Assembly: GCA_031412995.1 (NCBI GenBank) | Contig: JANOEC010000028.1 | Coordinates: forward strand, 15,458-79,457 | Source: Geobacteraceae bacterium | GTDB lineage: Bacteria; Desulfobacterota; Desulfuromonadia; Geobacterales; DSM-12255 | Length of the DNA: 64,000 nt | Reading direction: 5' to 3' | Shown: in pieces, positions 2,668-14,670 of the stretch | Layout: every line of letters starts with the position of its first letter | How positions within the stretch are numbered: the stretch's first letter is position 1 | Notes under the pieces: generated by a model | What the model saw: the letters and a program-made list of their open reading frames with translations, nothing else | The model's database searches: none | What the model was told of the DNA's origin: nothing | Program-made: the position numbers and the translations under genes

Positions 2668-3129
2668 ATGATTTCAATGCGCAGTAAATACGCCATTAAG
2701 GCGCTCAGTTTCATGGCCCGTTCGCGGGATAAGGAGAGTTACCTTATCGCCGAACTGGCCGCTGCTGAGAATATCCCCAAGAAATTTCTTGAGGCTATTT
2801 TGCTGACCCTCAAGAGCCAGGGCATTCTGAGCAGCCGCAAAGGGCCGGGCGGTGGCTATTGGCTGGCAAAGGCACCGTCAACTATTACGCTCGGCAATAT
2901 CATTCGTGCTTTTGAAGGGGATCTGGCCCCGGTGCAATGTTTGTCTGAGAATGCTTCATCGGCTTGTCCTGAGTGTCAGGATTTGGCGACCTGTGCCACT
3001 AGAATGGTGATGGCGGATGTGCAAAATGCAGTTTCGGCGATCGTTGACAACGTTACCCTGGCAGATATGATTGAAAAAAGTGAATTCGAGCGGCAACGGC
3101 TGTCCAAGCAACTCGATTTTTCCATCTGA
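2668..3129 (+). CDS. Rrf2-family transcriptional regulator (CymR/IscR-like)
   Basis: The N-terminus MRSKYAIKAL...IPKKFLEAILLTLKSQGILSSRKGPGGGY is the Rrf2 winged-HTH signature. C-terminal Cys residues follow (CLSENASSACPECQDLATC). Confidence 0.9.
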   Translation: MISMRSKYAIKALSFMARSRDKESYLIAELAAAENIPKKFLEAILLTLKSQGILSSRKGPGGGYWLAKAPSTITLGNIIRAFEGDLAPVQCLSENASSACPECQDLATCATRMVMADVQNAVSAIVDNVTLADMIEKSEFERQRLSKQLDFSI

Positions 3130-3208: not shown

Positions 3209-4162
3209 GTGGCAAAAATTTATGTCGACAACTCCCAATCCATCGGTAATACCCCGCTGATCCAGCTCAATCATGTAACCAAGGGCGCCGGGGCAACTGT
3301 TCTGGCCAAGATCGAGGGGCGCAACCCGGCTTATTCGGTCAAATGCCGCATCGGTGCCAGCATGATCTGGGACGCCGAGGAGCGAGGGGTACTGAAACCC
3401 GGGGTCGAGATCATCGAGCCGACCAGTGGCAATACCGGTATCGCCCTGGCGTATGTGGCCGCCGCACGGGGCTACAAGCTCACCTTGACCATGCCGGAAA
3501 CCATGAGTATCGAACGGCGCCGGGTACTGGCAGCACTGGGGGCGAATCTGATACTCACCCCTGGCACCGAGGGGATGAAGGGGGCAATCAGCAAGGCCGA
3601 AGAAATCGCCGCCTCTGATCCGGCCCGCTGGTTCATCCCGCAACAGTTCAAGAACCCTGCAAACCCGGCGATCCACGAAAAGACCACCGGGCCGGAAATC
3701 TGGAACGACACCGACGGCGCAATCGACGTGCTGGTGTCCGGGGTCGGCACTGGTGGCACCATCACCGGCATTTCCCGTTATATCAAAAACACCAAGGGGA
3801 AGAAGATCATCTCGGTGGCGGTTGAACCAAAAGAGAGCCCGGTCATTTCCCAAAAGTTGGCCGGTGAAGAATTGAAGCCCGGTCCCCACAAAATTCAGGG
3901 GATCGGCGCGGGGTTTATTCCCGATACCCTCGATCTGTCGATCGTCGATCGGGTTGAACAGGTCAGCAGTGACGATGCCATCGAATTTGCCAAGCGTCTG
4001 GCCAAGGAAGAGGGGATCCTGATCGGTATTTCCGGTGGTGCCGCCATTGCGGCCGCAGTTCGTTTGGCCTTTGATCCCGAGTTTACCGGCAAGACAATCG
4101 TCGTGATCCTTCCTGACGGCGCTGAGCGTTACCTTTCCACGGCGCTATTCGAGGGGATTTAA
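3209..4162 (+). CDS. cysK: cysteine synthase A (O-acetylserine sulfhydrylase)
   Basis: 317 aa with a GTG start after an AAGGAG RBS. Contains the PLP-Lys motif (NPAYSVKCR), [10 protein letters not shown] and [10 protein letters not shown]. Confidence 0.95.
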
Positions 4163-4879: not shown

Positions 4880-6130
4880 ATGAACAGACCGCAGTCATTG
4901 CATGTTGAAACCCTGCTTATTCATGGTGGTCTTGAGCCCGGCCCGTCTGGGGCAACTACGGTGCCGATTGTCCAATCGTCATCCTTTGCCCACGAGACTG
5001 CTGAAGACCTGGAAGATATTTTCCGCGGCCGTAAAACCGGGCAGATCTATACCCGCCTGAATAACCCCACTACTGAAAGTCTGGAGCGGCGCCTGGCCTT
5101 GCTCGAAGGTGCTGTCTCGGCGATAGCCACTGCTTCCGGCATGGCAGCCATCAGTACCGCGGTGTTGACCATCCTTCGCACCGGTGATGAAATCCTCTCT
5201 TCCGCGTCTCTGTTTGGTGGTACCTTTTCGTTGTTCAGGGATACTCTGTCTAACTACGGAATCTTGAGCAAGTTTGTCGATCCGACCGATTTGACCGCCT
5301 TTGCCGCGGCAGTTTCGCCGGCAACCAGGTTGATATTTGTCGAAACCATCGGCAATCCGAAAATGGATGTGCCAGATATCGCTGCCTTGAGTGCCATTGC
5401 CCGACGGGCTGGCGTTCCGCTCATGCTGGATGCCACGGTCACCTCTCCTTATCTGGCACGGGGGCGTGATCTCGGCGCTGATCTGGTGATTCATTCCACC
5501 AGCAAGTTCATCAACGGCACCGGCAGTGTCATTGGCGGCGCGATCATCGATTGCGGCACCTTCAACTGGCAGAGCCCGCTTTTTCCGCACTTTGAGCTGT
5601 ACGCCAATAAATACCGCCAGTTCGCCTTTTCCGCCCGCCTGCGCAAGTTGATGCACAAGGACCTGGGGGCCTGCCCAGCGCCGATGAACTCGTTCCTGCT
5701 CACCGAGGGGATTCAAACCCTGGGGCTGAGAATGGAGCGGCATTGCAGCAATGCCCTGGCCCTGGCGCAATTCCTGAAGGATCAGCCGCAGGTCAGTTGG
5801 GTCAACTACCCCGGCCTGGAAGATTCGCCGTTTCATGATCTGGCCACGCGTCAGTACGGTGGCCTTTACGGTGGGGTGCTCACATTTGGTCTGGCCAGCC
5901 AGCCAGAAGCGTTCCGCTTGATCAATGGGCTCAAACTGGCGAAAAACCTGGCCAACATCGGCGATGCCAAGACCCTGGTGATTCACCCGGCCAGCACCAT
6001 TTGTGTTGACTATCCCCCGGAACAGCGCCTGCTGATGGGCGTCACGGATGAACAGATCCGGGTTTCGGTTGGCCTCGAACATCCAAGCGATATCATCGGG
6101 GACTTTAGCCAAGCCCTCGTCAATCTTTAA
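4880..6130 (+). CDS. metY: O-acetylhomoserine sulfhydrylase (PLP-dependent, Cys/Met-metabolism family)
   Basis: 416 aa. Contains YTRLNNPT, the STSKF PLP-lysine motif and GDAKTLVIHPASTIC. Confidence 0.9.
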   Translation: MNRPQSLHVETLLIHGGLEPGPSGATTVPIVQSSSFAHETAEDLEDIFRGRKTGQIYTRLNNPTTESLERRLALLEGAVSAIATASGMAAISTAVLTILRTGDEILSSASLFGGTFSLFRDTLSNYGILSKFVDPTDLTAFAAAVSPATRLIFVETIGNPKMDVPDIAALSAIARRAGVPLMLDATVTSPYLARGRDLGADLVIHSTSKFINGTGSVIGGAIIDCGTFNWQSPLFPHFELYANKYRQFAFSARLRKLMHKDLGACPAPMNSFLLTEGIQTLGLRMERHCSNALALAQFLKDQPQVSWVNYPGLEDSPFHDLATRQYGGLYGGVLTFGLASQPEAFRLINGLKLAKNLANIGDAKTLVIHPASTICVDYPPEQRLLMGVTDEQIRVSVGLEHPSDIIGDFSQALVNL

Positions 6131-6152
6131 TTTCAGCAAGAAAGGACCAACC

Positions 6153-6365
6153 ATGCAACTGACTGTCAACGGTAAGCCCACCACCATCGAAGGAAAAGAG
6201 ACCCTCTCCATCACCGCCCTGCTTGATGAACTGCAGGTAAAGGATGCCCTGTACGTCACCGTGGAGCTGAATGGTGAGATCATTGACCGGGAGAACTTCG
6301 ATACGACTGCCATCACTGCGGGCAATAGTGTCGAGTTTCTCTACTTCATGGGGGGAGGCCGCTGA
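6153..6365 (+). CDS. ThiS/MoaD-family sulfur-carrier protein (HcyS/CysO-like) ending in GGGR
   Basis: 70 aa starting at the internal ATG 6153 after AAGAAAGGA. MQLTVNGK...VEFLYFMGGGR has the beta-grasp carrier pattern. The stop overlaps the next gene's ATG (TGATG). Confidence 0.8.
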   Translation: MQLTVNGKPTTIEGKETLSITALLDELQVKDALYVTVELNGEIIDRENFDTTAITAGNSVEFLYFMGGGR

Positions 6366-7174
6366 TGTTGACTGAAGAGCAGATCCAGCGCTACTCGCGC
6401 CACATAATTCTCAAGGAAGTCGGTGGCAAGGGGCAGCAGAAGCTGCTGGCCGGCCGGGTGCTGATCATTGGTGCCGGCGGGCTCGGTGCCCCGATTGCCC
6501 TCTATCTGGCCGCGGCCGGGGTTGGCACCATCGGTATTGCCGATGCCGACGTGGTGGACATCACCAATCTGCAGCGGCAGGTGATCCACTTCACCCCGGA
6601 TGTGGGCAAGCCAAAGGTGGAGTCGGCAGCAGAGAAGATGCGGGCCATCAACCCTGATGTCACGGTCAATACCTATCAGGAGTGGGTCAGTGCGGCCAAC
6701 ATCGCCGGGCTCATTGCCGATTACGACTTCATCATCGACGGTACCGATAACTTTGCCGCCAAGTTCCTGATCAACGATGCCTGCGTCCTGGGGGGCAAGC
6801 CCTATTCCCATGGCGGCATCCTCCAGTTCGTCGGTCAGACCATCACCGTGTTGCCGGGCCAGTCCACCTGTTATCGCTGCATCTTTCCGACTCCGCCACC
6901 CAAGGATGCCATCCCGACCTGTTCCCAGGCCGGCGTGATCGGGGTGCTGCCCGGCGTGATCGGATCGATTCAGGCCACTGAAGCGGTCAAGTTTATCCTC
7001 GGCAAAGGTGAGCTGCTGGCCGGGCGACTGTTGACCTATGATGCCCTGGCGATGAAATTCCGCGACATCGGGATCAAACGTAACCCGAAATGTCCGATCT
7101 GCGGGGACGCGCCGACCATCACCGAACTGCATGACGAACTGGATGCAATGACGGTCTGCGACCTGGGGAAATAG
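6365..7174 (+). CDS. ThiF/MoeB/HesA-family E1-like adenylyltransferase (HcyF-like)
   Basis: 269 aa. Contains RYSRHIIL, the GAGGLG nucleotide loop, and two CxxC pairs (CYRC, CPIC) forming the zinc site. Confidence 0.85.
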   Translation: MLTEEQIQRYSRHIILKEVGGKGQQKLLAGRVLIIGAGGLGAPIALYLAAAGVGTIGIADADVVDITNLQRQVIHFTPDVGKPKVESAAEKMRAINPDVTVNTYQEWVSAANIAGLIADYDFIIDGTDNFAAKFLINDACVLGGKPYSHGGILQFVGQTITVLPGQSTCYRCIFPTPPPKDAIPTCSQAGVIGVLPGVIGSIQATEAVKFILGKGELLAGRLLTYDALAMKFRDIGIKRNPKCPICGDAPTITELHDELDAMTVCDLGK

Positions 7175-7176
7175 CC

Positions 7177-7575
7177 ATGCTGACGATTCCGCAACCGATC
7201 ATTGACGCCCTGTTTGCCCACGCGAAAAAGGACTTCCCCCTGGAGGCCTGCGGCATCCTGGGGGGGGCGGATGGCGTGGTGAGCGCGCATTACCCGATGG
7301 TCAACACCGACCGGAGTAACGAACACTTCACCATGGAGCCGAAAGAGCAGTTTGCCGTGATCAAGGATCTGCGGGCCAAGGGGAAGGAGATGCTGGCCAT
7401 CTATCACTCCCACCCGGAAACCCCGGCGCGGCCGTCGGTAGAAGACATTCGCCTGGCGTTGACGCCGGCTGTTTCCTATGTGATCATTTCGTTGGCCGGG
7501 GAAGTCCCGGATATCAAATCATTCCTGATTGCGGGGGGCGTTGTCACCCCGGAAGAGATTAATATTTACACCTAA
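7177..7575 (+). CDS. JAMM/MPN+ metalloprotease (Mec+/HcyD-like)
   Basis: 132 aa. Contains EACGIL and HSHPETPARPSVED, which is the JAMM motif E...HxHx7Sx2D. Confidence 0.85.
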   Translation: MLTIPQPIIDALFAHAKKDFPLEACGILGGADGVVSAHYPMVNTDRSNEHFTMEPKEQFAVIKDLRAKGKEMLAIYHSHPETPARPSVEDIRLALTPAVSYVIISLAGEVPDIKSFLIAGGVVTPEEINIYT

Positions 7576-7681: not shown

Positions 7682-8641
7682 ATGGCCGACGAAAAAACCA
7701 CGACCACCATTGACCTGAAAAATCTCAAGGCCGGAGGCTTCATCAAGGAGCGGGGCAAAGACCTGTTTACCGTCAGACTGCGGGTCCCCGGCGGCCGCTT
7801 GCCGGTGGAGCGGCTGAAAAAAATTGCCGAAGTAGCGGACAAATACGGCCAGGGGATGGTGCACCTGTCGGTGCGACAGTCGGTGGAGCTGATCAATGTA
7901 AACTTCAAGGACTTTGACGCCGTGGTGGCCGAACTGGGGGCAGGGGACCAGAAAGTCGCATCCTGCGGCGCCCGGGTCCGGGTGCCGACGGCCTGCGGCG
8001 GCTGCGAATACAACCCCAATGGTCTGGTGGATACCCAGGCGTCGGCCCTGGAAGTGGATCAGCAGCTGTTCGGCACCTCAACGGGTCACCATAAGTTCAA
8101 GGTTGCCTTTGCCGGTTGCCCCTTTGACTGCCCCAAATCAGCGACCAATGATGTTGGTTTTCAGGGTGCGGTCTGGCCGAAGCTGCATGCGGCTGCCTGC
8201 ATCGGTTGTGGCCTCTGTGCTAAGAGCTGTGCCGATGGGGCGATTGTCATGGGGGATGACCAGTTGCCGCAGTTCAGTGCCGAAAACTGCACCTGGTGTG
8301 GCGACTGCCTCAAGGTCTGTCCGACCGAGGCCTGGCAGGCCGCAAAACTGGGCTATACGGTGCGCATCGGCGGCAAGTGGGGGCGCTACCCTTTAGTTGG
8401 CACCCTGTTCGCCACCTTCCTCCCCGAAAACCAAGTGGTGGCGTTCATCGCCGCTGTGCTGGCCTGGTACAAGGAAAAAGCCGAAGAAAAAGGGAGAATC
8501 AGGCTCGGTGAAATCATTATTCAGGAAGGCCCGGACTCGCTGTTGACGACTCTGCGCCAGCAATTCCCCGACTCAGTCGTGGCGGCAACCATTCCGCCGC
8601 AGCGGATTGATACCCAGGTCGGCAAGCGTTTGGTCGGTTGA
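7682..8641 (+). CDS. small sulfite-reductase-like protein (siroheme/4Fe-4S nitrite-sulfite reductase fold with an inserted 2x[4Fe-4S] ferredoxin domain)
   Basis: Preferred start is ATG 7682 (RBS AAGGAAAAG); the track ORF from 7646 begins inside the repeat. Cys motifs are ACGGC...AGCPFDCP plus CIGCGLCAKSC and CTWCGDCLKVCP. Confidence 0.7.
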   Translation: MADEKTTTTIDLKNLKAGGFIKERGKDLFTVRLRVPGGRLPVERLKKIAEVADKYGQGMVHLSVRQSVELINVNFKDFDAVVAELGAGDQKVASCGARVRVPTACGGCEYNPNGLVDTQASALEVDQQLFGTSTGHHKFKVAFAGCPFDCPKSATNDVGFQGAVWPKLHAAACIGCGLCAKSCADGAIVMGDDQLPQFSAENCTWCGDCLKVCPTEAWQAAKLGYTVRIGGKWGRYPLVGTLFATFLPENQVVAFIAAVLAWYKEKAEEKGRIRLGEIIIQEGPDSLLTTLRQQFPDSVVAATIPPQRIDTQVGKRLVG

Positions 8642-8654
8642 GGAAGATAACGTA

Positions 8655-9503
8655 ATGAACGTAGTGCTACAGGAAAAATACGCGCAGCTGCAGCAGCAGC
8701 TCAAGGAGATGGGTGGCTGTGTTATCGCCTATTCCGGCGGGGTTGATTCTTCGTTCCTCTTTGCGGTAGCGGTGCAACTGCTGGGCGATCGTGCCCTGGG
8801 GGTGACGGCAACCTCGGCAACCTATCCGGAACGGGAACTGCGCGAGGCCGAGTCACTGGCGCGGCAACTGGGTGGTCGCCAGCGGACGATTGTCTCTGAA
8901 GAGCTGGATATCCCCGGCTTTGCCGATAACCCGACGAACCGCTGTTACTACTGCAAGGCAGAGCTTTTTGGCAAGCTGCGCCAGATTGCCGCGGCAGAGG
9001 GGTTGCCGTACCTCCTTGATGGCAGCAATGCCGACGATCGGAGCGATTTTCGCCCCGGTCGCCAGGCCGCCGCCGAGCTGCAGGTGCGCAGCCCACTTGA
9101 TGAGGTCGGTTTGACGAAGAATGAAATCCGCGAGCTTTCGCGGATGCTGCAGCTGCCGACGGCGGAGAAACCGTCCTTTGCCTGCCTCTCGTCCCGGTTT
9201 CCCTATGGCACTACCATCACCCGTGAAAAGTTGTCCCAGGTTGGTCGTGCCGAAGATGCCCTGCGTGATCTGGGGCTGCAACAGCTGCGGGTACGGCATC
9301 ATGACACCATTGCCCGGGTCGAGCTGGGGCCGGATGAGTTTCTGCGGGCTGTCGGCGCGCTGCGGGCCGAGGTGATTCGCGTGGTCAAGTCAGTCGGTTA
9401 TGCCTATGTGGCCCTGGACCTGGAAGGGTATCGCACCGGCTCAATGAACGAAACGCTGCAAGAATCTGAATTGCAGCTGAACCAGAAAGAGAGAACTGCA
9501 TGA
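8655..9503 (+). CDS. PP-loop ATP pyrophosphatase of the LarE/TIGR00268 type (sulfur transferase-like)
   Basis: Starts at ATG 8655 after GAGGAAG. Contains the SGGVDSS PP-loop plus three Cys residues (CYYC and FACLSSRFPYG) as in cluster-binding LarE homologues. Confidence 0.8.
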   Translation: MNVVLQEKYAQLQQQLKEMGGCVIAYSGGVDSSFLFAVAVQLLGDRALGVTATSATYPERELREAESLARQLGGRQRTIVSEELDIPGFADNPTNRCYYCKAELFGKLRQIAAAEGLPYLLDGSNADDRSDFRPGRQAAAELQVRSPLDEVGLTKNEIRELSRMLQLPTAEKPSFACLSSRFPYGTTITREKLSQVGRAEDALRDLGLQQLRVRHHDTIARVELGPDEFLRAVGALRAEVIRVVKSVGYAYVALDLEGYRTGSMNETLQESELQLNQKERTA

Positions 9504-9724
9504 AGACCATCGATCTGCGCGGGGTTAGCTGCCCCACCAACTTTGTCGAGGCCAAGCTGGCGCTGGAACTGGAAGAAACCGGGGCCACGGTGGCGTTTCT
9601 GCTGGATGATGGCGAACCGGTCAAGAATGTGCCGCGCAGCCTGAAAGCCGAAGGGCATAAACTGCTCGGGCTGAAAGAGGCTGAAGGACACTATGTGCTG
9701 ACCCTGGAAAAGGGAGAAGAGTAA
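9500..9724 (+). CDS. TusA/SirA-family sulfurtransferase
   Basis: 74 aa. The DLRGVSCPTNFVEAK active-site Cys motif is present. The start overlaps the preceding stop by 4 nt. Confidence 0.8.
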   Translation: MKTIDLRGVSCPTNFVEAKLALELEETGATVAFLLDDGEPVKNVPRSLKAEGHKLLGLKEAEGHYVLTLEKGEE

Positions 9725-9727
9725 GTC

Positions 9728-10429
9728 GTGAGGACCAACCGTTCTATCCCGACCCTGCCGGACACCGCTTCGCCCCAGGAAATCCTCCAGGTCGGCGTTG
9801 CCGTAGCCAATGGTCCGCTGAAGCTGGCCTGCTCCTTCTCCGTGGAGGATGTGGTGATCATCGACCTGATCCGGCAGCTTGAGTTGCCGATCGGTGTCTT
9901 TGCCATTGACACCGGTCGGTTGAATGAAGAGACCTATGAGGTGGCTGATGCCCTTGTTGACCGCTATCGGCTCAGCATCGACTGGTATTTCCCGAAAAAC
10001 GATGCGGTGGAATGCCTGCTGCAGAGTAAGGGGCCATTCTCGTTTCGCGAATCCCTGGCGAACCGGCAGGAATGCTGCCGGATACGCAAGGTAGAACCGC
10101 TTAGCCGGGCGCTGCACGGGCTGGCAGGCTGGGTAACCGGCATGCGCCGTGAGCAGAGTGTCACCCGGACCGACCTGGTGGCAATCGCGATCGATGTTGC
10201 CAACAACGGCATCCTGAAGATCAACCCACTGCTCAACTGGAGCAGCGAGCAGGTATGGGACTACGCAAAGGAACAGGGCATCCCGGTCAATCGCCTGCAC
10301 CGTCTGGGCTACCCTTCCATTGGCTGTGCCCCCTGCACCCGGGCGATCCAGCCGGGCGAAGATGACCGGGCCGGCCGCTGGTGGTGGGAAAACCCGGAAA
10401 ACAAGGAATGTGGCCTGCATAAGCGATAA
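9728..10429 (+). CDS. cysH: adenylyl-sulfate (APS) reductase, thioredoxin-dependent, Fe-S type (CysH family)
   Basis: 233 aa with a GTG start. The CC..RK..P and SIGCAPCT motifs mark the [4Fe-4S] APS-reductase subgroup. The C-terminal ECGLH catalytic motif is present. Confidence 0.9.
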   Translation: MRTNRSIPTLPDTASPQEILQVGVAVANGPLKLACSFSVEDVVIIDLIRQLELPIGVFAIDTGRLNEETYEVADALVDRYRLSIDWYFPKNDAVECLLQSKGPFSFRESLANRQECCRIRKVEPLSRALHGLAGWVTGMRREQSVTRTDLVAIAIDVANNGILKINPLLNWSSEQVWDYAKEQGIPVNRLHRLGYPSIGCAPCTRAIQPGEDDRAGRWWWENPENKECGLHKR

Positions 10430-10431
10430 CA

Positions 10432-10884
10432 ATGAGAATGCGTAGTAATATCGCCTTATCAATCATGGTGCTGCTCCTGTTTGTCGTAGCAAAGACCGCA
10501 GCTGCCGGTCAACCAATGCCCTATACCGATGAGGCATTGGCGAAATTGCACCGGGCAAAGGTAAACTATAAGGCTCCAGGGGTAACTCCCGGCAATGATG
10601 ATGCAAAGATACGACTGTATATCGAACGACAACGGAGCATCTTTGCTGACGCCGGTTTTGATTATGACCGTTCAATCATCAGAATCATCAATGACATTCA
10701 GTTTGATCGGTATGCGGTAAATCGGACAACCATCGAACTAAATAACCTGGCCCGCGAACTGTTGCGCCTGCATGTCAATACTGGTATTAACCCCACAAAG
10801 CATCTTGGGGTGGGTTTTGGTCAGCTGCTCATTGATTTCCGGAACCTGATTCGCAGCAATTCTAAAAAGTATGGCGGCTGTTGA
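10432..10884 (+). CDS. secreted hypothetical protein (AT-richer than its neighbours)
   Basis: 150-aa ORF with a signal peptide (IALSIMVLLLFVVAKTAAAG). No family recognised. Confidence 0.5.
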   Translation: MRMRSNIALSIMVLLLFVVAKTAAAGQPMPYTDEALAKLHRAKVNYKAPGVTPGNDDAKIRLYIERQRSIFADAGFDYDRSIIRIINDIQFDRYAVNRTTIELNNLARELLRLHVNTGINPTKHLGVGFGQLLIDFRNLIRSNSKKYGGC

Positions 10885-10903
10885 GCCCTCAGGATATGGA
10901 ATT

Positions 10904-11992
10904 ATGATTAATACCGCAGTGCAAAAGCGTACAAAGGTAGTTATTGCCATGAGTGGCGGGGTTGACTCATCGGTCAGCGCGGCGTTGCTTAAAGAACAGG
11001 GGTATGAGGTAGTAGGGGTATCCCTGCAGCTGTATGATCCGATCCCGAAGGAACCTGGCTGCCGCAGCAAAACCTGCTGCTCGCTGGACGACGTGCTGGA
11101 CGCCGGCCGGGTGGCGATGAAGCTGGGTATCGATTTCGAAGTCATCGACATGCGCGCCGAGTTCAAACAGCTGGTGATCGATTATTTCATCGCCGAATAC
11201 GCGGCCGGCCGCACCCCCAACCCCTGCATTCGCTGCAATGAACTGATCAAGTTTGATCTGCTGCTGCAGAAGGCAAAGGAGCTGGGTGCCGACTTTCTGG
11301 CCACCGGTCATTACGCTCGGGTCGAAGCGGATGCTGCCGGACAGCAACGGCTGTTAACCGGACGTGATCCGGCCAAGGATCAGTCCTACTTCCTCTTTAC
11401 TTTGAGTCAGGCACAGCTGCAGCTGGTGCTGTTTCCCGTTGGTCAGCTGGAAAAGACAGAGGTCAGGCAGCTTGCCGTGAAATTTGCTTTACCGGTGGCG
11501 CAAAAGCATGAGAGCCAGGAGATCTGCTTCATTCCTGATAATGACTATGTGAAATTTCTGGAGACTCACGGCATCGCCCAGAACCCGGGTGAGATTGTGA
11601 CTAGGGATGGTTCGATTATTGGGCGGCACTCAGGATTACACCGTTATACAGTTGGCCAGCGCAAAGGGCTTGGCATTGCCTGGCCCCATCCGCTGCACGT
11701 AACCGATATTGATATTGCGCGAAACCGGTTGGTGGTTGGTGGATACGAAGAGCTGTCAACCTCCGTGTTAAGAGCTGCTCAGGCAACTTGGAGTGTGGCG
11801 CCGCCATCAGCTGAGTTCAGGGCAACCTGCCGCATCCGCTACCGGCACCAACCGGCAGACTGTACCGTCCACATGCTGGCCGATGACCGCTTTACCGTTC
11901 ATTTTGACACCCCGCAGACATCCGTGACCCCGGGCCAGGCCGCGGTTCTTTACAATGGTGATACCGTCATTGGCGGTGGATGGATTGAATAA
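10904..11992 (+). CDS. mnmA: tRNA 2-thiouridine(34) synthase
   Basis: Contains the [11 protein letters not shown]-loop, NPCIRCN and ATGHYAR. The start is taken at internal ATG 10904; ATG 10871 is also possible. Confidence 0.9.
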
Positions 11993-12003: not shown

Positions 12004-12909
12004 ATGAGCAAGAACCTGACGCACTTACAACAGCTGGAAGCGGAAAGCATCCAGATTCTCCGGGAAGTGGTGGCTGAATTCACCAACCCGGTGATGCTTT
12101 ACTCCATTGGCAAAGACTCGGCGGTCATGCTGCATCTGGCCCGCAAGGCCTTTTACCCGGCACCGCCACCGTTTCCACTGCTGCACGTGGACACCACCTG
12201 GAAGTTTCGCGAAATGATCCAGTTCCGGGACCGGATGGCGGCCGAATGTGGTCTCGACCTGATCGTTCATGTGAATGAGGAGGGGGTAAGGCTGGGGGTT
12301 TCCCCCTTTACCCACGGTTCGTCACTCTATACCGACATCATGAAGACTGAAGGGTTGAAGCAGGCGCTGAACAAGTATAAGTTCGACGCGGCCTTTGGTG
12401 GTGCCCGCCGCGATGAGGAAAAGTCGCGGGCCAAGGAGCGAATCTTCTCCTTCCGCAGCAAAAATCATCGCTGGGATCCAAAGGACCAGCGGCCGGAGCT
12501 CTGGAGTCTGTACAACACCCGGGTCAAACCGGGGGAAAGCATCCGGGTCTTTCCAATCTCCAACTGGACCGAACTGGATGTCTGGCAATACATTCACTTG
12601 GAACAGATTCCGATCGTACCGCTCTACTACGCGGCAGTCCGGCCGGTGGTGGAGCGGGACGGCATGCTGATCATGGTGGATGACGAGCGCATGGACCTGC
12701 GGCCAGGAGAAGAGATTCAGTACAAATCGGTTCGCTTCCGCACCTTGGGGTGCTACCCCCTGACCGGGGCGGTGGAATCGGAGGCAGATACTCTGCCGCA
12801 AATCAACCAGGAGATGCTCTTGACCAAGACCTCGGAGCGCCAGGGGCGGCTGATCGACCATGATTCGGCGGGGTCAATGGAAAAGAAGAAGCAGGAAGGA
12901 TATTTTTAA
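12004..12909 (+). CDS. cysD: sulfate adenylyltransferase subunit 2
   Basis: 301 aa. Contains [18 protein letters not shown] and a C-terminus of [12 protein letters not shown]. Confidence 0.95.
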
Positions 12910-12993
12910 AACCGCTCAGGGCTCTGGGCCTGGGGCTCGGGATAATCTCTTGAGCCCTGAACCCTGAGCCCTTAGCCCATAACTGAGGTAATC

Positions 12994-14670
12994 ATGGCAC
13001 ACCAATCAGAGTTGATTGAACAAGATATCCTGGCCTACCTGAAGAGCCAGGAAGAAAAGTCGCTGCTCCGCTTTATCACCTGCGGTAGTGTTGACGACGG
13101 CAAAAGTACCCTGATTGGCCGTCTGCTCTGGGATTCCAAAATGGTCTTCGAGGATCAGCTGGCGGCCCTGGAGGCGGACAGTAAACGGGTCGGTACCCAG
13201 GGGGGCGCTATTGACTATGCCCTGCTGCTGGACGGGCTGCAGGCGGAGCGGGAGCAGGGGATCACCATTGATGTGGCCTATCGCTTCTTCTCCACTGACA
13301 ATCGCAAGTTCATCGTTGCCGACACCCCGGGCCACGAGCAGTATACCCGCAACATGGTAACCGGTGCCTCCACCGCCCAGGTAGCAGTGATCCTGGTGGA
13401 TGCCCGCAAGGGGCTGTTGACCCAGACCCGACGCCATAGTTTCCTGGTCTCCCTGGTTGGCATCAAGCATGTGGTGTTGGCAATCAATAAGATGGATTTG
13501 ATTGACTTTGATCAGGAGCGGTTCGATGCGATCGTGCGCGACTACCAGCAGTTCGCCGCCCCGCTCGGCTTTGCCTCCATTACCGCCATCCCGCTCTCGG
13601 CCTTGAATGGCGACAATATGATAGATGCCAGCGCGAACACCCCGTGGTACACCGGGCCGACCCTGATGCACTTTCTCGAGAACTTTGCGGTCGCCGGGGA
13701 TAACCGGGAGCAACCGTTCCGGATGCCGGTGCAGTGGGTAAACCGCCCCCATCTCGACTTCCGCGGTTTTTGCGGCACCATCGCCGCCGGTACGATCCGA
13801 CCGGGAGACGAGCTGCGGGTAGCCGCATCCGGGAGTGTCAGCCGGGTAGCTCGCATTGTCACCATGGGGGGCGATCTGGGGGAGGCAACCGCTGGCCAGG
13901 CCGTGACCCTGACCCTGGCGGACGAAATTGACGTCAGCCGGGGGGATATGCTGACCGCACCTGATGCGCCACCGCTCCATGCCCGCCATCCGGAGGCACA
14001 CCTGGTCTGGATGCATGACGAGCCGCTGCAGCTGGGGCAGGTCTACCTGGTCAGGACCGCGACGGCCATAACCCCTGGTCGGGTTACTGACATCCAGTAT
14101 GTGGTGGATGTCAATACCCTGGAGCAAAAGCAGGCACCGTCCCTCGGACTGAACGAAATAGGCGTGGCCCGCCTGGAGCTGGACCGCCCAATTGCCTTTG
14201 ATACTTATCAGCAGAACCGGGATACGGGCAGTTTCATCCTGATCGACCGCTTCAGCAACGCGACGGTGGCAGCCGGCATGGTAATCGCGACCGCGCCGGA
14301 CAACTTCCGGACCACCCACGAGGTATCGTTTACATCGGCTCCGGTAGTTGGTGATGTCCCGGCCAAACTGATCTCTTTGGGTGATAACGCCATTGGCGGC
14401 CATGGGGTAAGTCTGGTGGACCTGACCGGCGAGGAAAGTTCGCTGATATTTACCGTTGAAACCAGCTTTCTTGACTATCTTGGCCAGGGGAATAGGTTAC
14501 TGTTTCGTCTGCGTAATCTGGCACAGCTGGCAGCAGTGGCACAATTGGCGTATGAGCAGACCCTGTCGTTTGAATTTGACCGGACCGCAGATGGCGTGAG
14601 CCTGATGCTGTTTAAACGGAGTATCAGGCAGGAGAGCGGAGTGCATGCCGATGACGGAACCGGGATCTGA
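12994..14670 (+). CDS. cysN: sulfate adenylyltransferase subunit 1 (GTPase) with a C-terminal extension of about 115 aa of unknown type
   Basis: G-domain motifs [17 protein letters not shown] and NKMD are present. The protein is 558 aa versus about 475 aa for E. coli CysN as I recall it. The tail has no P-loop. Confidence 0.9.

Follow-up and report, generated by a model that had tools for sequence, protein, structure and literature searches.

We examined a stretch of 64 000 nucleotides (nt) from a Geobacteraceae bacterium (GenBank assembly GCA_031412995.1, contig JANOEC010000028.1, positions 15 458–79 457; hereafter the window, on contig C28) in which a gene for a LarE-like PP-loop ATPase and a small tusA gene lie between the genes for a sulfite reductase-like protein (Sir) and CysH, in a cluster of sulfate-assimilation genes. 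On the evidence of the sequence, it is probable that this gene encodes a functional, orthodox LarE of the [4Fe-4S] type, and that it is a foreign copy in an operon of a known type (class 4e), where it would be positioned near a supply of reduced sulfur. A preliminary description of the same DNA had proposed instead that LarE and TusA form a dedicated pair in a sulfur relay tied to assimilation, and that a role in making the Lar cofactor was less likely.

Identity of the LarE protein

The open reading frame (ORF) at 8655–9503 encodes 282 amino acids (aa) and matches the LarE model TIGR00268 from end to end (model positions 1–259 of 259) at 315.4 bits, the cut-off being 150. The product includes YSGGVDSS, NRCYYCK and SFACLSSRFPYG, and all of the motifs ascribed to it earlier are present. 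Its PP-loop, S27-G-G-V-D31-S32, falls in columns that are invariant or nearly so in alignments of 84 and 58 LarEs, many of them from lar operons. The cysteines C97xxC100 and C177 are invariant in all 84 LarEs aligned, S180, R212 and R214 (L. plantarum numbering) are present and are invariant across LarEs, and the window LarE matches every invariant column of both alignments.

LarEs of the [4Fe-4S] class combine SGGxDS with CxxC…C, in which the third cysteine is shifted by one residue from Cys176 of the L. plantarum enzyme, and S180, R212 and R214 have been named as the residues that bind the phosphate of P2CMN (PMC9283937). The alignment of the window LarE with the crystallised L. plantarum enzyme (5UDQ; 169 bits) is full-length, and the substrate-site motifs SSRFPYGT and RVRxH are the same in both (SSRFPYGT and RVR being identical). 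However, the L. plantarum enzyme is sacrificial, lacks the CxxC and gives up Cys176, whereas the window LarE has Ala176 followed by Cys177, so that its third cysteine lies one residue further on, together with Cys97 and Cys100, and hence it should act catalytically via a cluster. The closer comparison is with LarE of T. maritima, a [4Fe-4S]-dependent catalytic insertase (PMC9283937), with which it shares SGGxDS, CxxC…C with the shifted third cysteine, and S180/R212/R214, and neither gene is linked to a cysteine desulfurase. They differ in that T. maritima has C172-x-C174 where the window has C177-L-S, and thus no fourth cysteine, and in that the window gene is one of three paralogs and is found inside a sulfate-assimilation/thiocarboxylate operon. 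Judged by family, residues and phylogeny, the ORF is an orthodox tri-Cys LarE of the [4Fe-4S] type, as the preliminary description had recognised from the three cysteines, and it is from these features that we infer an active enzyme.

Lar pathway genes in the genome and the phylum

The absence of larA, larB and larC from the vicinity, noted earlier, agrees with searches of the whole assembly (G000; 165 contigs, 99 % complete), which placed larB-larC on contig C90 (LarB 298 bits, LarC 206 bits) and the sole strong match to LarA in the genome (201 bits) on contig C109; the window itself was not searched for lar genes. The preliminary description had specified two findings that together would tell against it, namely that larA, larB and larC are found elsewhere and that the gene is needed for lactate racemase-type activity; the first of these is what was found.

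LarE also tracks LarB across the phylum. Among 101 genomes, each at least 90 % complete, both are found in 87 and neither in eight, LarE alone is found in two and LarB alone in four. The two with LarE only are fragmented metagenome-assembled genomes (MAGs) that are 90–91 % complete, and the eight joint absences are spread over five genera. All 23 genomes from the same family have LarE, mostly in one copy, and all have LarB; 20 have LarA. Outside the family, each of the five genomes in which LarE is linked to cys genes has a single LarE and a LarB elsewhere, and hence a cys-linked LarE is usually the only LarE open to a genome that bears LarB. The view that a Lar role is less likely is therefore opposed by the presence of larB, larC and larA in the same genome and by the tracking of LarB by LarE, as well as by the retention of the LarE-defining residues and by the nearest relatives of the protein, which are found in larE-larB-larC operons.

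Origin of the operon copy

Three larE genes were found in the genome, on C28 (the window), C78 and C65. In two trees, built from 84 sequences (LG+C20) and from 142 sequences (LG+G4), the window and C78 LarEs form a supported clade with a copy from one related genome (G001) and one from a metagenome locus (L173). This Sir-linked clade nests (96–98 SH-aLRT) with LarEs of larE-larB-larC operons, those of an Anaeromyxobacter MAG (63 % identity), of genome G044 (two loci, 67–69 %) and of genome G118 (68 %). The same group includes two further sulfur-linked LarEs, one in a MetY-ThiS-ThiF-JAMM-LarE arrangement (genome G090) and one at a metagenome locus with the order Rrf2, LarE, CysE-TusA-DsrE. The LarEs resident in the family constitute a separate clade (43 rows). 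Because the operon copy groups with LarEs from lar operons and apart from the residents, it is, on the phylogeny, a xenolog, an extra copy acquired horizontally and put between sir and tusA. It lies on short branches, and a comparison of the C28 and C78 copies gives a dN/dS of 0.11, which is within the range of the neighbouring genes.

The order Sir-LarE-TusA was found at only four loci, namely the window, the C78 copy, G001 (75 % identity) and a metagenome contig (78 %), which looks like the recent insertion of a foreign LarE.

The third gene (C65:31920–32690; L003 1408–2301; L111) is in the arrangement Rrf2-CysK-LarE, and its CysK is 53 % identical to that of the window. This is the LarE that has diverged: its terminal branch measures 1.4, and residues of the substrate site are changed, with SRIPTGT where others have SRFPYGT, and with YQTGSMH. 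The resident C65 LarE may have been decaying or changing its function since the foreign copy arrived.

The sulfur gene cluster

The + strand of the window from 2668 to approximately 16000 is one tightly packed cluster of sulfur genes, as follows.

2668–3129, + strand: Rrf2-family regulator (PF02082, 128 bits), at the head of the cluster
3209–4162, + strand: CysK, directly 3′ of Rrf2; the Rrf2-CysK pair is kept in relatives
4880–6130, + strand: MetY, an assignment based on the translation and on the conserved place in the gene order
6153–6365, + strand: ThiS-like carrier of 70 aa that ends in GGGR (PF02597)
6365–7174, + strand: ThiF-type E1 of 269 aa with the ThiF domain only, without rhodanese (PF00899)
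7177–7575, + strand: JAMM protease (PF14464)
7682–8641, + strand: sirohaem sulfite reductase-like protein (Sir) of 319 aa with a 2x[4Fe-4S] ferredoxin insert (PF01077, PF03460, Fer4)
8655–9503, + strand: LarE of 282 aa (TIGR00268)
9500–9724, + strand: TusA/SirA-type carrier of 74 aa (PF01206)
9728–10429, + strand: CysH, thioredoxin-dependent adenosine phosphosulfate (APS)/phosphoadenosine phosphosulfate (PAPS) reductase (NF002537, 260 bits; TIGR02055, 249 bits; both pass)
between CysH and MnmA, + strand: ORF of 150 aa, no family named
approximately 10871–11992, + strand: MnmA, tRNA 2-thiouridine(34) synthase (NF001138, 447 bits)
12004–14670, + strand: CysD and CysN, the ATP sulfurylase subunits, named from translations and the synteny of orthologues in relatives
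3′ of CysN, + strand: Sbp, at the end of the cluster

The larE gene begins with ATG, 13 nt past the stop of sir (8641) and with a ribosome-binding site (GAGGAAG) 8 nt upstream, and its TGA overlaps the ATG of tusA by 4 nt as ATGA. Thus, the 74-aa TusA with VSCPTNF and its 4-nt overlap are as first described. Likewise, the two genes are indeed wedged between a sulfite reductase gene and that of an APS-type reductase, since cysH starts 3 nt past tusA and its product exceeds the cut-off of 235 bits for the ‘APS reductase’ model TIGR02055. The start of mnmA is approximately 1.15 kb past tusA, in agreement with the 1.2 kb given before. With the model TIGR02912, Sir scored 136 bits, which is under the cut-off of that model. 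A scan of the cluster for promoters and terminators gave counts not above those of shuffled sequence and no standout internal terminator; the sole strong promoter-like site (11 of 12 matches) precedes metY. A search for public sequencing runs gave three DNA runs, all from a single freshwater-sediment metagenome study and two of them probably from the source sample, and no RNA runs. From their sequences, MetY, the ThiS-like carrier, the E1 and the JAMM protease (4880–7575) are a protein-thiocarboxylate homocysteine module.

TusA and the class 4e operon

TusA matches PF01206 over profile positions 1–70 of 70 at 66.5 bits (cut-off 28.6). Cys11 is part of a CPTNF motif, and C11-P12 is invariant in 17 orthologues; all close orthologues have C-P-T-N, in which the second Pro of the canonical CPxP is replaced. 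When the LarE and TusA regions of related genomes were annotated using the proteins of the window, the conserved order was found to be MetY-ThiS-ThiF-JAMM-Sir-TusA-CysH-MnmA-CysD-CysN. In 12 related genomes, TusA is within a few bases of Sir with no LarE between them. The TusA orthologues are 68–89 % identical, and there is no difference in sequence between those with and those without LarE.

This arrangement corresponds to the class 4e operons described by Iyer, Burroughs and Aravind in 2006, in which the E1 ‘always lacks’ the rhodanese domain and which ‘always contain a SirA’ that was predicted to take the role of the rhodanese, with Geobacter metallireducens and Wolinella among the examples (PMC1779556). 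Common to that class (PMC1779556) and the window are the ThiS-like carrier, JAMM, the E1 lacking rhodanese, SirA/TusA, sulfite reductase, PAPS/APS reductase, ATP sulfurylase and O-acetylhomoserine sulfhydrylase, the carrier, E1, JAB, SirA/TusA, Sir and CysH of the window being assigned by family search and MetY, CysD and CysN by translation or synteny. The published description (PMC1779556) does not include a PP-loop enzyme, whereas in the window LarE separates Sir from TusA, and operons of the window type have a C-type MnmA as a further conserved member. Hence, this type of operon was already known and, as far as gene order can tell, the order Sir-LarE-TusA is an insertion into it. The methionine pathway of Wolinella succinogenes, comprising HcyS, HcyF, HcyD, MetY and Sir, is reportedly encoded by the same kind of gene set.

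By its distribution and sequence, TusA is an ancestral member of the operon and not the partner of LarE. The dedicated LarE-TusA pair proposed earlier is not consistent with the location of tusA directly 3′ of sir in 12 relatives without a LarE at that place, with the constancy of TusA in class 4e (PMC1779556), or with a sequence that is the same with or without LarE. A predicted LarE-TusA complex scored 0.00 against a mark of 0.32, which weighs neither for nor against binding. What stands of the proposed relay is the genomic association, as LarE is indeed located in a sulfate-assimilation/thiocarboxylate operon; the pairing with TusA and the improbability of a Lar role do not. TusA would take the part of the rhodanese domain missing from the E1, and may also feed MnmA.

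MnmA

The MnmA translation includes KTCCS, PCIRCN and QEICF, which make up the CC-CxxC-C motif of the C-type. MnmAs have been divided into motif classes, and the CC-CxxC-C ‘C-type’ is [4Fe-4S]-dependent in Thermus (PMC7025502). MnmA is conserved in the sulfate-assimilation operons of relatives, where it often comes directly after TusA (TusA-CysH-MnmA or TusA-MnmA). With an MnmA of this type, the operon holds two three-Cys PP-loop sulfur insertases downstream of a sulfide-producing enzyme.

TusA and MnmA are also parts of the IscS-TusA-TusBCD-TusE-MnmA relay of E. coli; in the window they are encoded together, and they are conserved neighbours in relatives. However, the window MnmA belongs to the Fe-S C-type and differs in this from the persulfide D-type, and TusA has CPTN, not CPxP. 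The suggestion that TusA supplies MnmA is in keeping with their conserved linkage, a linkage that does not depend on LarE.

Sulfur genes near larE across the phylum

The LarEs resident in the family are not near larB or larC, with the exception of one genome (G020), in which larB is approximately 9 kb away. They follow either a distinct Rrf2 paralog (ten genomes) or Rrf2-CysK. In two genomes, G016 (L107:6493–10091) and G020 (L090), Rrf2-CysK-LarE is followed by a NirA-like sulfite reductase of 431 aa that is not orthologous to the small Sir of the window, and in G020 larB and cysNDH are within 10 kb.

Sixty larE loci from 55 families of the Desulfobacterota were then considered. LarE adjoins larB or larC in 14, and in 18 there is a gene for CysK, MnmA, ThiF, JAMM, Sir, TusA, MetY or Rrf2 within 6 kb. 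An unbiased clustering of the genes up to three places away from larE in either direction found that the commonest neighbour encodes a 336-aa ThiI/MnmA-like PP-loop protein with a C-terminal NFACT-R_2 RNA-binding domain. It is no more than two genes away in eight loci and immediately upstream on the same strand in six (L155:3959–4966, − strand; also L116, L127, L133, L159 and L169 among the loci with this gene). Other common neighbours were LarB, HcyBio, a CBS-pair protein, LarC, MnmA, ThiF, CysK and a class-V aminotransferase. HcyBio (PF01837), the methanogen-type enzyme that incorporates sulfur into homocysteine, and the CBS-pair protein adjoin LarE in approximately six loci (L139:3232–6573; L160, L128 and L148). 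LarE is beside ThiF, JAMM or ThiS in at least nine loci. By our own count, approximately 25 of the 60 are beside genes for sulfur trafficking (CysK, MnmA, ThiF/JAMM, HcyBio or the ThiI-like gene), and, on the starred branches of the tree, the sulfur context must have changed at least nine times.

The link between LarE and sulfur assimilation that had been suspected from one locus is thus found repeatedly across the phylum. As to the comparison of co-occurrence with larB/larC and with cys/hcy genes suggested in the preliminary description, LarE tracks LarB and the linkage to sulfur genes recurs. Using a first set of markers, the lar and sulfur contexts appeared to be mutually exclusive, but this was dropped because the unbiased clustering revealed exceptions such as L139, where the order is larB-CBS-HcyBio-larE.

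At a locus on a metagenome contig (L174:7106–10559), a LarE that is 70 % identical has a divergent Rrf2 gene on one side and, on the other, a convergent operon for serine acetyltransferase, a 60-aa TusA and DsrE_2.

Proposed role and alternatives

We propose that a foreign larE was inserted in a pre-existing Rrf2-CysK…MetY-ThiS-ThiF-JAMM-Sir-TusA-CysH-MnmA-CysDN operon. The enzyme would supply sulfur from the open iron of a cluster bound through Cys97, Cys100 and Cys177, where the sulfur would be kept as a non-core sulfide, and its product would be a precursor of the nickel-pincer cofactor, to be completed and used by LarC and LarA, whose genes are elsewhere in the genome. As with many larE genes of the phylum, its position would probably reflect co-expression with a source of reduced sulfur, either sulfide from Sir or sulfur on a carrier protein, and LarE would join the C-type MnmA as a further Fe-S PP-loop client that consumes sulfur. 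Its location probably follows a habit of the phylum, seen in the gene neighbourhoods, of placing Fe-S-dependent sulfur insertases beside a supply of reduced sulfur. The donor may be free sulfide, a carrier thiocarboxylate (as for TtuA-TtuB), a TusA persulfide or a class-V aminotransferase, four of which are encoded in the genome.

A partial precedent is TtuA, a related Fe-S PP-loop enzyme that takes its sulfur from a ThiS-like thiocarboxylate. In the TtuA-TtuB-TtuC system of Thermus thermophilus, the PP-loop ATPase TtuA has a [4Fe-4S] cluster held by three cysteines and works with a ThiS-like carrier and a ThiF-type E1. For LarE, a transfer of sulfur from such a carrier would be suggested by gene adjacency to ThiF, JAMM or ThiS at several loci, and LarE differs from TtuA in that its substrate is a nucleotide cofactor precursor, not tRNA, and in that it has no zinc-finger domains.

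Several points weigh against this proposal. There are three LarEs for one larB and one larC, and this redundancy leaves room for a second role. One genome (G084; L156 and L157) has both a larE-larB-larC operon and a LarE directly after the cysN of a Sir/CysH/CysK/CysDN operon, as would be expected of a cys-linked copy that had a function of its own. The phosphate-site residues that have been kept would point to a substrate bearing a phosphate, not to P2CMN itself. Finally, there is no obvious physiological logic in co-regulating the enzyme of a trace cofactor with bulk sulfur assimilation.

Though an orthodox LarE might also have landed in the operon by chance during horizontal transfer, and be linked to sulfur assimilation neither in function nor in regulation, we consider this unlikely. 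An accident would suit a xenolog for which the Sir-LarE-TusA order is confined to four loci of one small clade, which relatives do without, and whose presence leaves the TusA sequence unchanged. It does not explain why the resident LarEs are also beside Rrf2, CysK or Sir, including the non-orthologous NirA-like Sir of G016 and G020, nor why LarE is beside sulfur genes in many unrelated families, with at least nine independent changes of context. The inserted gene also shows translational coupling to each of its neighbours, and purifying selection maintains the two copies.

A paralog with a new function, working in assimilation itself while another paralog serves Lar, appears very unlikely. Such an enzyme might pass cluster sulfide, with TusA, to the ThiS-like carrier adenylate or to MnmA, or might thiocarboxylate another substrate. 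The surplus of LarEs over larB and larC, the two LarEs in different contexts in both G084 and G090 (in the latter, MetY-ThiS-ThiF-JAMM-LarE and a second LarE near another ThiF; L158 and L159), an E1 without a rhodanese domain and the precedent of TtuA would be compatible with it. However, the operon copy is conservative, with short branches and all of the LarE-invariant residues including S180, R212 and R214, and its nearest relatives are in lar operons; the copy that has diverged is the resident on C65 (branch 1.4, SRIPTGT for SRFPYGT). Furthermore, a cys-linked LarE is in most cases the only LarE of its genome, which also has LarB, and the operon exists without LarE in 12 relatives. A bolder combination, in which the [4Fe-4S] LarEs of the Desulfobacterota are fed by operon products (the thiocarboxylate of the ThiS-like carrier, TusA, or sulfide channelled from Sir) and not by a cysteine desulfurase, and the operon copy in genomes with extra LarEs, such as this one, possibly has a second role in assimilation, is distinctly unlikely.

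An orthodox LarE placed near its sulfur supply is thus the reading we prefer, and it has a bearing on the in vivo donor of [4Fe-4S] LarEs. The sole donor demonstrated in vitro is E. coli IscS with cysteine (PMC9283937), and the physiological donor of the catalytic cluster enzymes is unsettled. In this phylum, larE genes are more often beside those for cysteine synthase, sulfite reductase, ThiS/ThiF/JAMM, HcyBio or Fe-S PP-loop thiolases than beside larB or larC, and these neighbours provide concrete candidates. In the literature searched, we found no paper that links larE with cysK or with these sulfur operons, and nothing relevant on LarE with TusA or on TusA with sulfite reductase, thiocarboxylate or homocysteine; the linkage of larE to sulfur-supply genes may therefore be unreported. 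For annotation, caution is needed, as a LarE inside a cys operon and far from lar genes is still best called LarE, and a neighbouring TusA is best assigned to the carrier-protein pathway.

The second copy of the cluster

The whole 16-kb cluster, from Rrf2 through Sbp and including Sir-LarE-TusA, is present a second time at C78:19803–36388 (L110), with 83–87 % nucleotide identity. Strain contamination was considered as the source of this copy and was rejected because the match to C28 is confined to the 16-kb cluster, the remaining 20 kb of C78 having no counterpart elsewhere in the genome, and because an end of C78 overlaps contig C4 at 100 %. In comparison with window positions 2600–23400, two pieces are absent from the C78 cluster, namely the 150-aa ORF that separates cysH from mnmA and approximately 4.6 kb found at C28:31514–36096.

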